A stretch of 64,000 nt of DNA from an uncultured Methanosarcinales archaeon. GTDB lineage: Archaea; Halobacteriota; Methanosarcinia; Methanotrichales; Methanotrichaceae. The translations under genes and the position numbers were made by a program. The notes under the pieces were generated by a model that did no database searches, was not told the origin of the DNA, and saw only the letters and a list, made by a program, of their open reading frames with translations. The stretch is from contig CAWJKV010000014.1 in NCBI GenBank assembly GCA_963843555.1, forward strand, positions 1 to 64,000, read 5' to 3'. Shown here one piece after another: positions 2,750 through 8,207 of the stretch. How positions within the stretch are numbered: the stretch's first letter is position 1; every line of letters begins with the position of its first letter.

Positions 2750-3258
2750 ATATACTATGAATGTATGGAAGAATCCTATTTACCACTTTTGAGGAATTTG
2801 AGATTGCCATTGACACCCGCTCCAAATACTCTTTTTGCAACAGCATGAGGTCTTTCGCAGGCGATCTCAATTTGCTGATCAACCTGTTCCTTTCTTTATC
2901 AAGCTCTCCCAGAGGTGCATCAGTTGTCCTGCGCACCATGGTAAAGTCATCACCTCTGCAGGCACGCCAAAATATCCTCGATCTCGGATGACGACTTCGC
3001 CTTCGATTGACAGATCAACCCGGCTGTCATGCACCTTTGCTGTGGTGGTCTCGATTTCACGAATAAGGCCGTAATCGATATCGCTTTTTTGATGAAGCTT
3101 GTAGCCAAAATAGCTTTTCTTTCCTTTTTTCGTCCAGGTTCCATCTCGGCTGTGGCGAGTCTTGGCCACCCCGTCAGATGTTTTCTTTGATTTTCCGGGA
3201 TCCGCTTCAATAAATGTGGCATCCTGTATCGTTCCACGCTTGACCCTCAAACCCTTAG
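2750..3258 (-). mobile_element. IS5-family transposase fragment (pseudogene)
   Basis: GTIQDATFI, RDGTWTKKGKKSYFGYKLH, TTAKVHDS, DRGY motifs; frameshifted and truncated at both ends. Confidence 0.85.
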
Positions 3259-4100
3259 GGACTGACACGCATAAAATTAACAACTTTGTATTGTAGAACG
3301 TTGTCCATATATCATGGATGACAGCCGTAGATTATGGGCCCTTCATAAAAGCTCTATACTGATGCAGCCAGAAATCTCCGCAAGCCCGGTGGCAGTCGAA
3401 AAAGAGCAGAAATGAGCGAGCCAACCCTATTGATTGACCTTGAAGATATAATGAAAGAGAGCACCTCAGGTGATCCGATGAGTCATCTTAAATGGACTAA
3501 TAGATCAACCTGTGCTATAGCAGAAGAACTACAATTAAAAGGTCAAAAAGTTAGTCACGATGCAGTGAGACGGCTATTGAAAGAGAACGGTTATTCGCTT
3601 CAAGCTAATAGAAAAACATCAGAAAGCAAATCAGGTCCGGAGAGAGATAGTCAGTTTCGTTATATTAATAATCAGCAGCCAACTTTAAAGATGCAGGAGA
3701 TCCTGTAATTTCTGTAGATGCAAAAGAAGAAAGAGCTCATTGGCGATTGTAAGAATTCAGGCAGGACTTGGAGGCCAAAGGGCCAGCCAGAACTGGTAAA
3801 TGTTTATGATTTTCCCTCAAAAGCGATTGGTGCTGCGATTCCTTACGGGATCTATGATCTAAAAAGAAACAATGGGGTCGTTAATGCCGGGAAAAGCCAT
3901 AATACTGCAGAATTTGCTGTTGAAAGCATCGGACAGTGGTGGAATTTAGCTGGATAATATAATTATGTGGACTGCAAAAATTTGCTCATTTGCCCCGATG
4001 GCGGGGGAATCATAGGATCGACCAAGACAAAAAGATGGCTAGAAATCGAGGCTCGAATAGATGAAAGAGATTATGAGACGGGGATAAAGATAGAAAAGAG
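3259..4100 (+). mobile_element. ISAzo13-family transposase remnant (degraded, deletions and frameshifts)
   Basis: GDPMSHLKWTNRS, GYSLQANRKT, RDSQFRYIN, KKKELIG, VYDFP, AIPYGIYD, HNTAEFAVESI..WW motifs; boundaries approximate. Confidence 0.85.
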
Positions 4101-4106
4101 CAGCTC

Positions 4107-5151
4107 TCACCGCTGTCTATCATGAAAACCATGCTCCTCGTCACCATCCTTATCCGCCGGTCGAACTGTCCTCCTTCTTCTGGCTACATTTGAGGACGAT
4201 GCTGATGGAATCCTGTTTTGGGGGGTGCTATTGCGATTGGTAGGACGGGATGATCCGCGATCTGCTTCATCACCAGCTTCAGTTGGCTCTCGAAGCTCTT
4301 CTGAGAAGGGTTCTCGAAGAGCCTTCCAAGATCTTTCACCGGCAAAAGCAGCATCAGCTTCTTCGAACCTCTCCACGGCCATCAGTGCCAGACCAATGCT
4401 ATTCCACGCCTTGACATAGTGGGGATCAATCTCAATGGACTTTTCAAAGCACCTAATGGCGTCATCATAGTTATCCCGGCGCCTGAGATGATTCGCCTTT
4501 ATTGTACCAGGCTTCGGAGTATTCTGGATCTATTTCTACAGCTTTTTCAAAACACGTCTCAGCTTCACTGTACAGCCCGAGCGAAGCGAGAGCAGCTCCT
4601 CTGTTATTCCAGGCCTCGGCGTTCTCTGGATCCATCTCTATCGCTATATCGAAGCAGTCCAGTGCTTCATCATATCTCCCAAGATTGGCCAGAGCAGCAC
4701 CCTTATTATTCCAGACTTTCGGCCTTTCAGAATTTATACTGAGAGTCTTATCATAATATTCGATAGCTTCGGGGTAATTGCCCAGCTTGCCAAGTATCAC
4801 TCCTTTATTGTACCAGGCCCTGGCATAATTCGGATCCATCTCGATAATTTTATCGAAGTATCGCGTGGCTTCATCAAACCTTTTCAGCTTGTATAGAACC
4901 ACTCCTATATTGTTCCAGGCATCTATAAAACCAGGATCTATGTCAAGAGCATTCTCAAAACACACCAGGGCTTCATGGTACCTGCCCAGACGGCAGATGG
5001 CCAGGCCTCTGCTATTCCAAAGCCCGGCATTAACCGGATCAATCTCGATAGCTTTACCGTAGGACTCAATAGCTTCTTCATACTTCCCATTTTTATACAG
5101 TTCATTGCCTTCTTCGACAAAAGGTGTCACGGCCAATATGCACCTCATCAT
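4107..5151 (-). CDS. Tetratricopeptide repeat protein (frameshift near 4480)
   Basis: Repeated 34-aa W-x-N-x-G...A...A-x-x-I-D-P units; TPR pattern continues (NYDDAIRCFEKSIEIDP) in another frame past the ORF stop. Confidence 0.85.
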
Positions 5152-5558
5152 TTGCTATTGTTGCGAAGCAGTTCTCTTTCAGCTTCATGATCGAGCACCT
5201 CTAAAGCTTTTTGGACCGAAAGCCACCTGACCCTATCTACTTCCTCTGATGGTTCGAATTTGCTTTCTCCAATCGGTTCCATGTTCCAAAATTGTACGAC
5301 TTTTGGTGTGCCTTTAACATTATAGCTGACTTTGCCGGCAAAGCTTTTCAATTGGACGCTATAACCCGTCTCTTCCTTGACCTCTCTAACGGCTGCATCC
5401 TTCCAGTCCTCTCCGGGTTCCAGCTTCCCTTTTGGAAGCGTCCAGTCTCTGTGGCGTGCTCGATGAATCACTGCAATCTCTCTGCCGTGGACAGAATCAC
5501 GCCAGACCAAACCTCCGGCCGCTCTAATTGTTTTAACGCCGTTATTTTCATCTGACAT
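5148..5558 (-). CDS. NUDIX hydrolase
   Basis: Nudix box LPKGKLEPGEDWKDAAVREVKEETG. Confidence 0.92.
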   Translation of the reverse strand: MSDENNGVKTIRAAGGLVWRDSVHGREIAVIHRARHRDWTLPKGKLEPGEDWKDAAVREVKEETGYSVQLKSFAGKVSYNVKGTPKVVQFWNMEPIGESKFEPSEEVDRVRWLSVQKALEVLDHEAERELLRNNSK

Positions 5559-5679
5559 CTCGGCAACCTCAACCAGACCCTAAATCGATGATCGACTATC
5601 TAAGTGATTCTCTGAAACAGGACGATTCTCTTATCTACATCATTAATGTAAATAGTTTTCTTTCAGGCTATCGACGACC

Positions 5680-5720
5680 GCAAACTACAAATATCTATAA
5701 CGATTATATAGATAGTTTGC
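5680..5720. promoter_or_regulatory. Imperfect palindrome overlapping TATA boxes between the nudix gene and the candidate ncRNA
   Basis: GCAAACT(acaaat)ATCTATA-acgatta-TATAGATAGTTTGC; TTATATA at 5704-5710. Confidence 0.5.
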
Positions 5721-5724
5721 CGCG

Positions 5725-6190
5725 TCTTGCGCTGAAGGAATGTGGGCAAGGCTTACCGGCTGAGCTCTTAAGGCTGAATGGTTCGATAGACGTGTCCCAC
5801 CATAGATATGCCATTCGAATCTCTGAGGACCTTAGAGGTGCTGTTTCAGGCAGCATCCGGAAAGCTATCGGATGGGCTGAGGATCAAACGACCGATAAAT
5901 GCACGCCGTAACGGGCGCAGCATGTCGTTGGTCAGCCTTTGGATCCGAAATCCCTGGTTTTGGCCCAGGACGCGGCACATTGCTCAAGCTGGTGCCGGGA
6001 GCGAGCGCAGGCCACACGTCGAGATGATGTCGGGTTCCCGTAAAAGGGACGCTGTGTGAGATTCCAGTGCTGTGCCGCCTCGCACTCGGCTTGATGTCGA
6101 GTTCTTGGACGCGGGTCAGGCCAACACTTCGGTGATTGGCCCCTCTGCAGAAGGGCGCTGTGGATCGGTGCTGGCCCGCCTGAGACTCGA
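5725..6190 (+). ncRNA. Candidate large structured non-coding RNA of unknown class
   Basis: Many nested helices (5770-77/5932-39, 5972-79/6071-78, 6111-19/6171-79 etc.), cUUCGg loop, upstream TATA, downstream T-tract, no convincing ORF; ends approximate. Confidence 0.65.
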
Positions 6191-6210
6191 TTATGCTTTC
6201 TTTTGATTTT
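6191..6210 (+). terminator. Archaeal T-rich terminator
   Basis: TTATGCTTTCTTTTGATTTT directly after the structured region. Confidence 0.5.
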
Positions 6211-6330
6211 GACCTATTCTCTTCATCAAGTTGGTGCTACCCCGATTTCTGGCGTGAAATTCCATAATTGAGAAACAATTTAAGGAATGATCACGTCTTG
6301 TATTCAGCCTGCGAATGAGGACGGTTCAAT

Positions 6331-6783
6331 ATGCAAATTGCAGTTGTGGGTGGCGGAGTATGCAGCCCGGATGTTCGGGAAAAGGCCGAGCGGCTGGGTA
6401 GACTTCTCGCTGAGGAAGGCCATATTCTGATCTGCGGGGGCCTGGGCGGCGTGATGGAGGCGGTTTGCCGTGGTGCCAGGGAGGCGGGCGGCGTGACTTT
6501 GGGCATACTTCCCGGCGGAAAGATTGATGCGAATAAATATGTCAGCATAGCCGTCGCCACTGGCATGGGCCATGCCAGGAATGTGATAATAATAGAAAGC
6601 TGCGATGCCGTCATTGCTCTTCCGGGCGAACACGGCACCCTGTCTGAGATCGCCCTGGCCTTGAAGATGAACCGGCCGGTCGTAAGCCTTGGGAGCTGGG
6701 ACATCGCCGGCACTCTGAGAGCAAATGACCCTGAAGAGGCATTGGAGCTTCTGGGCCGGGCCTTACGGTATCGCTCGAATTGA
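6331..6783 (+). CDS. TIGR00725 / LOG-like Rossmann-fold nucleotide-binding protein
   Basis: CGGLGGVMEA, TGMGHARN, PGEHGTLSEI motifs. Confidence 0.88.
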   Translation: MQIAVVGGGVCSPDVREKAERLGRLLAEEGHILICGGLGGVMEAVCRGAREAGGVTLGILPGGKIDANKYVSIAVATGMGHARNVIIIESCDAVIALPGEHGTLSEIALALKMNRPVVSLGSWDIAGTLRANDPEEALELLGRALRYRSN

Positions 6784-6836
6784 TGAAAGAATAGTTATAT
6801 TTGGGCTGACATCAAGGAGATCAGGGAGAGCTGGAA

Positions 6837-8207
6837 ATGAGATACTATAAACCTCGTGCAATGATAATAATAATGATCTTTTTCTTTTTATCATTTGTGG
6901 GGGCAGCGTCTGATCCTGCCCCTAAAGACGATGCCTATCACTACATGAAAAATGGCGTCGATGACCAACTCTACAATGAGATGTGGCGCTTCAATGGGGC
7001 GGATAATAAGACTCAATTCACGATCGCATTCCTCCTCAGCGACCCGGAAAACCTGACCTCTTCCAGAAAGATTCAGGTACAGGCTGTGGTTTGGCAGGAG
7101 GGCCAGCCTCCTCTTCAGGGCACTCACCAGAGCAAGGGATATGGAGGTGACAGGAACGCTCCCATGTTTGAAATAGATAAGAGCGGCTTTTCTTCTGAGC
7201 TGGCGGGCCCGAACCTCAATCTCTGGGGCGAAGTTTTGGACGAGACTACGGGCGAACCCATTGCCTGGGATCTGGTCTATGAGCCGACGGTCAGCCCCTG
7301 GTTCTCCATCCCGATCCAGCCGCATATCGGACACCTCAATGGAGATTGGATGAGGTGGCTGGTTTACATGCCTTCCGCCAATGTTTCGGGCTCGATCACC
7401 GTCGGCAACAGGACGCTTAACATCAGTGGCACAGGCTACCACGATCACTTTTGGGGGCGTTTTGCCTTGAATGATCCAGAGATCACCTGGGCCCAGGCCT
7501 CTGTCCCCAAAGATGGTTTCAGCCTGACCTGGGGCGAGATTCTCGGCGAGGAACGAAATGCATTCCTGGGAATAAAGAAAGATGGCAAGACCCACAAATT
7601 CTCAGCCAAGCAGATCAAGATAAATTATACAGACTTTGCATTTGACAATACCACGGCAGCAATTTATCCTGCCGGTTACAATATATCTGCGGAGAACGGG
7701 GAATTTATCCTCGATCTGAATGTCGCTGTGCAAAAGAGCGTGCCGACGATGGTTGACTATTCTGCCCCAATGCCCAGCCATCTGGCCTTCCAGCAGTACT
7801 CTCTATTACAGGGAACATTGAGATCGAAATCCGGTGACGAATACAGCTTCCGGAGCCCTGGCTTCTCGGGGTTCATGACGCAAAGGCTGCATCCCATATT
7901 TGGCAGGCTCAACATCACGGATCCAGCGGCTAAGGCTGCCAATATTACCCTCACTGCCACCAATGAGAGAACAGGTCAGGTGAAGGTGGCAAAAGTTGCT
8001 TCCAATACTTTTTACAGCGTAGATGCCAACTATCCCGATTACCTGGCCAACAGAGACGCCCCCTGGGTGGCTGATGGAGACAGGGTAAAGCTGGAGATGA
8101 AGCTGGATATGAACAAGAGCCAGAAGCCTGGGAACAGCACAGTCCTGTCAATTGACCTATCCCAAGATCGGCAGAAGGCGAACCTTAAAATTGAGAAGTC
8201 CGCATGA
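6837..8207 (+). CDS. Secreted lipocalin-like (AttH/CrtC-type) domain protein
   Basis: Signal peptide; NEMWRF and GTGYHDHFWG motifs resemble the hydroxyneurosporene synthase/AttH fold. Confidence 0.55.
   Translation: MRYYKPRAMIIIMIFFFLSFVGAASDPAPKDDAYHYMKNGVDDQLYNEMWRFNGADNKTQFTIAFLLSDPENLTSSRKIQVQAVVWQEGQPPLQGTHQSKGYGGDRNAPMFEIDKSGFSSELAGPNLNLWGEVLDETTGEPIAWDLVYEPTVSPWFSIPIQPHIGHLNGDWMRWLVYMPSANVSGSITVGNRTLNISGTGYHDHFWGRFALNDPEITWAQASVPKDGFSLTWGEILGEERNAFLGIKKDGKTHKFSAKQIKINYTDFAFDNTTAAIYPAGYNISAENGEFILDLNVAVQKSVPTMVDYSAPMPSHLAFQQYSLLQGTLRSKSGDEYSFRSPGFSGFMTQRLHPIFGRLNITDPAAKAANITLTATNERTGQVKVAKVASNTFYSVDANYPDYLANRDAPWVADGDRVKLEMKLDMNKSQKPGNSTVLSIDLSQDRQKANLKIEKSA

Follow-up and report, generated by a model that had tools for sequence, protein, structure and literature searches.

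The window, a stretch of 64 000 nucleotides from an uncultured Methanosarcinales archaeon of the family Methanotrichaceae, contains between two protein-coding genes the gene for a folded RNA of ∼475 nt, a stand-alone large non-coding RNA. The features of the locus are as follows:

5148 to 5558, minus strand: NUDIX hydrolase gene (PF00293), a divergent neighbour outside the element
5676 to 5718, plus strand: promoter-like block of 43 conserved AT-rich bases, probably holding BRE and TATA elements
5686 to 5693 or 5692 to 5699, plus strand: TATA candidates, read from the sequence
5689 to 5717, no strand assigned: imperfect dyad with 11-bp arms and a 7-bp spacer in the TATA-to-start region, a candidate operator
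5719 to 6195, plus strand: predicted mature RNA of ∼475 nt, of which the start could be at 5715 to 5719 and the 3′ end is a prediction
5719 to 5976, plus strand: domain 1, closed by helix P1 (5719–5729 with 5966–5976); variable, and absent from a minimal version
5985 to 6093, plus strand: domain 2, a stem ending in four-way junction module 1 (6007–6073), from covariation
6056 to 6064, plus strand: T-loop-like loop of 7 nt, closed by a G-C pair, on arm 3 of module 1, from its sequence pattern
6096 to 6191, plus strand: domain 3, a stem leading to four-way junction module 2 (6113–6177), the duplicate of module 1
6197 to 6210, plus strand: T-rich tract after the last helix, a likely archaeal intrinsic terminator
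6331 to 6783, plus strand: SLOG cluster 4 (TIGR00725-like) gene (PF18306), a neighbour outside the element

The two flanking genes lie side by side in just one of 29 other loci examined, that of genome G077, and 28 of 29 homologous SLOG-gene loci of other genomes have no RNA within 1.5 kb. Elsewhere in the window there are fragmented ORFs at 2879–3283 (minus strand) and 3412–4125 (plus strand), which we take to be remnants of IS5-type and ISAzo13-type transposases.

A sequence-only reading of the locus had proposed a stand-alone large non-coding RNA outside the RNase P, SRP, group II intron and tRNA classes. Our analysis supports this, and none of the testable observations that would speak against it was made: the RNA matches no known family in Rfam, its homologues carry compensatory changes, no overlapping ORF is conserved, and contigs from RNA libraries, although unstranded, cover the element. 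The structure was correctly placed on the plus strand, for which z is −3.0 (5725–6200) compared with −1.0 for the minus strand, and the sense strand has the lower z in 12 of 12 randomly drawn homologues, a rough measure with 12 shuffles each. The proposed 5′ start at 5725 has to be moved to ∼5719, because 5719–5729 pairs with 5966–5976; folding from 5719 gives a minimum free energy of −210.6 kcal/mol, with z = −4.65 relative to shuffles. This unconstrained fold is nearly equal in energy to our comparative model (−209.8 kcal/mol).

Sequence conservation across copies extends from ∼5676 to ∼6191, and thus includes the promoter-like block. Compared with its orthologue in G077 the RNA body has 25 differences and one gap in 476 positions, the block has none in 43, and the spacers on both sides have many changes and gaps. 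Within the block A5683, T5686 and T5698 are invariant in all 105 copies aligned. Strong matches to it in the window's genome occur solely at the six copies of the RNA described below, and we therefore reject a regulon common to protein genes; in the larger collection the block accompanies 137 of 205 copies. The TTATATA at 5704–5710 and the T-rich tract were both present as described. With a TATA box at 5704 the RNA would begin near 5733 and lack the covarying 5′ strand, so that one of the two upstream candidates is the more likely TATA element. The dyad may be an operator. Only two of its pairs exceed the expectation from independence among 117 blocks, 5695/5711 (72 against 52.9) and 5696/5710 (76 against 64.3), neither figure being corrected for kinship. 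At the other end of the gene, a 25-nt stretch around the 3′ end has a mean T fraction of 0.52 over 205 copies.

The overall fold is modelled as three domains. Its 67 pairs are kept in 94.5% of 1970 cells of an alignment of 30 copies that was not fitted to the model, a value equalled by none of 500 shuffles and to be compared with 33–44% for slid controls; 25 of the 67 have changed on both sides. In 50 more diverse copies, whose alignment was fitted to a model, 26 of 39 pairs have done so, and one-sided changes of the G-C to G-U type occur throughout most stems. Since shuffled and slid controls leave kinship in, we also counted changes on shared branches of the tree for 9423 pairs in 137 copies. 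The top two are both model pairs, 6053/6066, which ranks first, and 5903/5918, with six shared branches each against 0.5 expected, and at the P1 pair 5724/5971 seven of seven events are compensatory. The best pairs (p ∼1e-5) fail correction over all 9423 tests, and the scan gives no convincing loop–loop pair or tertiary contact among them. A plain G-test within clade A of the family was dominated by kinship noise and uninformative. Some 71% of positions are predicted to be paired. There is no conserved ORF: 100 of 105 copies lack an open frame, and the copy lengths modulo 3 split 26/43/36. Taken as a member of a functional non-coding RNA family, the element leaves us in very little doubt.

Ten of the stems listed in the sequence-only reading are complementary at their stated positions, as is its ATCCG/CGGAT pairing, yet most of the long-range pairs that it named are poorly kept across the family. 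In alignment A1 the pairs 5770/5939, 5965/6108, 6013/6058 and 5941/5953 are retained in 43, 57, 54 and 43% of cells respectively, while 5839/5855 (86%), 6036/6049 (79%), 5972/6078 (79%) and 6084/6102 (77%) fare better. The helix at 5972/6078 competes with the 5′ helix for one strand, and may be an alternative fold. The pseudoknot suggested between 5742–46 and 5796–5800 is likewise complementary, but its pairs are conserved in just 50–71% of cells, and on grounds of conservation we have rejected it along with several of the long-range stems. Taken together, the earlier set of pairs is formed in 65.7% of cells in the 30 unfitted copies, compared with the 94.5% of the revised model.

Helix P1, which closes domain 1, reaches 8 bp or more in 89 of 105 copies, where two shifted controls do so in 3 and 18 of 105, and its inner part has different sequences in the two large clades of the family. 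Two hairpins within the domain, at 5837–5857 and 5900–5922, covary. This is nevertheless the variable part of the RNA, with 21 of the 25 differences from the G077 orthologue, against four in domains 2 and 3, none of which breaks a pair. Of 18 changes at predicted paired sites 10 break a pair, all in domain 1, and the finer fold of this domain is therefore uncertain. Copies of clade B (L002–L005 and others) have a G-rich bulge just inside P1 whose sequence complements the 3′ strand of domain 3 (equivalent to 6174–6180 in the window). This could form an alternative closing helix; it is absent from clade A, and by eye its covariation is not clear.

At its conserved core the RNA has one four-way junction duplicated in tandem. 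In module 1 the junction arms are 96–98% paired and the closing helix 78%, and domain 2 as a whole is identical to that of the G077 orthologue; the helices of domain 3 are 92–99% paired. Neither junction has an unpaired linker, and the helices are in the same register in both. A profile made from module 2 recognizes module 1 with at least 5 bits in 88 of 105 copies, and recognizes neither domain 1 (0/105) nor any of three shuffles (0/105 each). The minimal version, found in two genomes of genus g11 (L282, at ∼1450–1670, and L292), is ∼215 nt long and places domains 2 and 3 alone behind a promoter-like stretch. From this it appears that the two modules are the core and that domain 1 is accessory.

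Arm 3 differs between the modules. In module 1 its loop conforms to the pattern of a T-loop; a loop of this kind is found by pattern in 90 of 105 copies, and the loop has 7 nt in 80. Among those 80 there is U at position 1 in 60, A at position 5 in 78 and U at position 7 in 76. A T-loop motif on a junction arm, the mark of a tRNA-like RNA, is thus present as judged by sequence pattern. In module 2 arm 3 ends in a short loop (6161–6165) that usually contains GG.

How general is this RNA? The sequence-only reading treated it as a single gene, since one window alone cannot reveal that it is multi-copy and modular. In fact the window's genome (G000) has six full copies in unrelated spacers, together with fragments; the copies are 48–89% mutually identical, and three of them 88–89%. 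Degenerate or partial copies in the same genome are at G000:C16:78835-79131, C16:91311-91464, C2:181813-181898 and C18:103073-103175. Matches are present in 36 of 36 genomes tested from the same genus and in 0 of 24 belonging to other families. With a covariance model built on the 3′ part the RNA is found in 51 of 74 other Methanotrichaceae genomes and in none of 76 from four other families of the class, and a broader model finds it in 26 of 41 family genomes and 10 of 14 genera, with 1–13 matches per genome. The remaining 15 of the 41, and four genera including all the genomes of g10 (0/7) and g16 (0/3), gave no match, so the RNA looks dispensable. Outside the family one of 144 genomes matched weakly at the level of the phylum (G253, E 0.001), within coding sequence, and the broader model matched none of five further genomes in a search that had no positive control. 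There is thus no convincing match outside Methanotrichaceae.

Scanning one genome per species with a sequence pattern returned 83 loci, 73 of them with a profile match and nearly all of these labelled Methanothrix, Methanosaeta, Methanotrichaceae or Methanosarcinales; the other 10, all labelled bacterial, have no profile match and were discarded. A partial but real copy (L142 2486-2651, 78 bits) lies on a contig labelled Oscillospiraceae with Methanothrix-type flanks, and this contig may be misbinned. Of 125 metagenome loci, 76 of the first 80 matched. In a looser viral scan 25 of 26 loci had no real match to the model. A single viral contig (L068) carries a copy, and the plasmid and phage collections gave no match. 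The resulting collection comprises 205 distinct copies of the 3′ domain, with 137 single full-length matches and 29 split or truncated ones for which upstream sequence is available. A tree of 105 full copies divides into two large clades, with several deep branches besides; the window copy falls in clade A.

One copy seems to be ancient. Fourteen of 42 genomes, spread over four genera, have a copy no more than ∼4 kb upstream of glyS (coordinates compared by eye, and counting a weak match in G082 and one 4.1 kb away in G026). The gene often found between the RNA and glyS is presumably Hsp20-like, judging by its translation. The T-loop motif and the position of this paralogue upstream of the gene for glycyl-tRNA synthetase recall the T-box riboswitch leaders. 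Unlike a T-box, most copies of the RNA have unrelated neighbours, it is not a synthetase leader in all members, and it has no Rfam match; at glyS itself the two genes are set apart by the Hsp20-like gene or by several hundred bases, and glyS has a conserved upstream promoter-like motif of its own.

The same features raise the possibility that the RNA mimics tRNA or its elbow, and acts as a decoy or hibernation factor on ribosomes, a synthetase or a tRNA-processing enzyme. Four-way junctions bearing a T-loop-like arm, the GG-containing loop on module 2 and the old copy upstream of glyS would all suit such a role, and GOLLD RNA is reported to bind ribosomes in pull-downs (10.1101/2024.12.08.627333). 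The details fit less well. ARAGORN and Rfam detect no tRNA in the element, ARAGORN finds neither tRNA nor tmRNA in the window, there is no conserved reading frame of the kind tmRNA carries, and CCA occurs near the 3′ end in just 7 of 105 copies. Position 3 of the tRNA T-loop is a C that pairs with a G of the D-loop; here it is A in 67 of 80. Nor are the copies enriched near tRNA genes, 8 of 205 having one within 1.2 kb where 5.5 are expected, and the glyS loci have in common a promoter-like motif of their own. We consider tRNA mimicry rather unlikely. The bacterial Y RNAs of the YrlA type and other tRNA-like RNAs also have a multi-arm junction with a T-loop-bearing arm. The present RNA differs from them in being much larger, in having two modules and in lacking an Rfam match, and we find no TROVE/Ro60 gene in the window's genome (82% complete) or in five near-complete relatives.

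With so many dispersed copies among unrelated neighbours, three of them 88–89% identical in one genome, could the RNA be part of a non-autonomous mobile element? This might be MITE-like, similar to the omega RNAs of IS200/605 or the bridge RNAs of IS110, or retroposed; derivatives of this kind are likewise dispersed multi-copy genes of structured RNA with a sharply bounded conserved block. Copies are present in some species and absent from close relatives, many are truncated, the geometry of the dyad resembles that of tyrosine-recombinase sites, and an Xer-like integrase is next to four copies. Yet among the 205 distinct copies, drawn from sampled collections, there is no internal ORF of the size of a transposase or reverse transcriptase, and no ORF-bearing parent; in one copy, L235, ∼420 bases with a small ORF lie between promoter and body. 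The one clean empty site is imprecise: G077 lacks, at the corresponding position, both the C12 copy of the window's genome and 335 bases upstream of it, and there is no target duplication. Near G000 C5:233762, where four relatives have a copy, the window's genome has ∼8 kb of other DNA and a short remnant of the 3′ end of the RNA. Duplicated segments extend raggedly beyond the RNA, the glyS-linked orthologue is fixed, retroposition would lose the promoter block that so many copies retain, and just one viral contig, and no entry of the plasmid or phage collections, carries a copy. When flanks were compared all against all to look for precise empty sites, other repeats dominated the matches. Such ragged turnover without a transposase is that of a gene family and not of a precise transposon, and a mobile element seems to us quite improbable.

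The neighbours of the 205 copies are mixed. Among the named clusters, which are 40 of 313, DUF1699 adjoins 18 copies, IS1634 four, the Xer-like integrase four and IS481 two. DUF1699 lies upstream of 20 of 97 copies, mostly in clade B (16/49 compared with 3/37), but we reject it as an obligate partner: every one of the 41 family genomes has it, whether or not the RNA occurs there, at 2–20 copies per genome, and in the window's genome it is beside no copy of the RNA. An atlas look-up of DUF1699 returned its own family alone. A cluster of the MC1 chromatin protein, DUF1699, the large RNA and a small RNA recurs in L068 (537-4163, the viral contig), L094, L122 and L145, accompanied in L068 by a TPR gene and an Xer-like integrase.

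That small RNA belongs to a second repeated non-coding unit, which consists of a conserved promoter-like stretch of its own and a hairpin of ∼65 nt with a loop and a tail similar to the anti-Shine-Dalgarno sequence. The unit is found after the large RNA in 41 of 54 copies of clade B and 10 of 38 of clade A, is not beside the window copy, and has no Rfam match; examples are L002 at ∼1750–1850 (G000:C5:124169-124265), G000:C6:71881-71999, C5:340769-340849, C16:78693-78762 and C12:52875-52969. A third recurrent non-coding segment, with a GGAGGAG-rich end, is ∼200–300 bases past the large RNA in L017, L022, L025, L152 and others, and may be a further small RNA, encoded on the other strand.

In Rfam 15 the element has no match at E values up to 10 and, when the window was searched, none at gathering scores; a search with six loci that between them carry paralogues and the minimal version also left the element unmatched. 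Archaeal RNase P RNA (RF00373) and SRP RNA (RF01857) do not match, their P4 and helix-8 motifs each occurring in one of 105 copies, and the genome has its own genes for both elsewhere, at G000:C14:154896-155199 and G000:C3:25393-25707 respectively.

A catalytic function, either as an ORF-less derivative of an intron or as a wholly new ribozyme, would agree with the size, the multi-domain fold and the invariant junction residues, all of which are typical of large ribozymes. There is a precedent in the HYERs, described as ORF-less group II derivatives with nuclease activity (PMC12990946). By crude patterns a domain V-like element is found in 2 of 105 copies, a GUGYG 5′ end in 16, the RNase P motif in one, and a group I or hammerhead core in none; no joints are seen in RNA-library contigs compared with the element, and a repeated module takes the place of a single catalytic core. 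We give a ribozyme a small probability. Still less likely is a base-pairing guide or regulator, as an H/ACA-like guide or a large sRNA. ACA follows P1 in 50 of 105 copies, the paralogue-specific domain 1 could hold different guides, and the small RNA with anti-Shine-Dalgarno-like loops is often downstream, but about half the copies have no ACA, most of the RNA is sequestered in predicted pairs, and the minimal version does without domain 1 altogether.

The closest resemblance is to OLE, GOLLD, ROOL and raiA, large 'ornate' orphan RNAs of bacteria and phages, the first three of which have Rfam entries. These RNAs are also hundreds of nucleotides long, stand-alone and dense in covarying structure; GOLLD likewise combines a conserved 3′ part with a variable 5′ part, and raiA has a T-loop (10.1101/2024.12.08.627333; PMC12990946). 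The present RNA is unlike all four in being archaeal and chromosomal, in having no Rfam match, and in having up to 13 diverged paralogues and a core made of a tandemly duplicated junction module; unlike GOLLD it is tied neither to tRNA clusters nor to phages or prophages. We found no description of it in the open literature searched, and this family of large modular archaeal RNAs is apparently unpublished.

Is the RNA made? Part of the window stretch is present in 20 metatranscriptome runs from eight studies. When contigs of four runs from four studies were compared with 4400–7400, the listed pieces spanned 5731–6183, among them 314 nt with one difference and 406 nt with five, and some had at least 99% identity. 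The contigs are unstranded, give neither ends nor level, and may reflect DNA carry-over; a gap in them over the flanking genes and a high depth in run X4 were not used to rank expression. We infer that transcription extends from ∼5719 to the U-tract. It might be argued that the RNA libraries simply contain DNA, and that the element is a repeat whose symmetry acts in DNA and whose transcription is incidental. This is scarcely credible, given the one-sided G-C to G-U type changes in most stems, the bias of folding to the sense strand, the T-loop-like motif, and a promoter-like block and U-tract at opposite ends.

Among these readings we tentatively favour a structural scaffold, in which the RNA would be neither message, guide nor mobile element but a folded body binding protein or its own copies; reasoning by analogy, we put this at somewhat short of an even chance. 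Transcribed from ∼5719 to the U-tract, the paralogues would be switched together by a shared regulator at the dyad, probably in slow growth or stress, the link to stress being conjectural. In each junction the arms would be coaxially stacked, and a purine, either in the loop of module 2 or on another chain, could be captured by the T-loop of module 1 to give a compact or oligomeric particle. Domain 1 would be an accessory part that differs between paralogues. The family would spread through infrequent, imprecise duplications and losses, with a single ancestral copy remaining close to glyS. The docking, oligomers, partners and regulation in this scheme are modelled on raiA, GOLLD, ROOL and OLE, for which there are published reports of RNA-only oligomers and of an adenine captured by a T-loop (10.1101/2024.12.08.627333). 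An elaborated version, to which we would give a low probability, is a modular RNA machine of T-loop-docked homo- or hetero-oligomers, with paralogue-specific 5′ domains, one operator and a role peculiar to slow-growing acetoclastic methanogens.

Large structured RNAs of unassigned function are to our knowledge rare, and those that are well studied are bacterial or phage-borne. The present family adds an archaeal case, in the acetate-using methanogens that account for much of the methane derived from acetate. It also provides a tractable system, with more than 100 natural variants, a duplicated module, a family-specific promoter block and a natural minimal form of 215 nt, which in L282 and L292 offers the best construct for structural work. 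Several large structured RNAs have been reported to be RNA-only assemblies (10.1101/2024.12.08.627333), and the family bears both on the existence of such RNA-only scaffolds in archaea and on the way in which large RNAs grow by duplication of modules.
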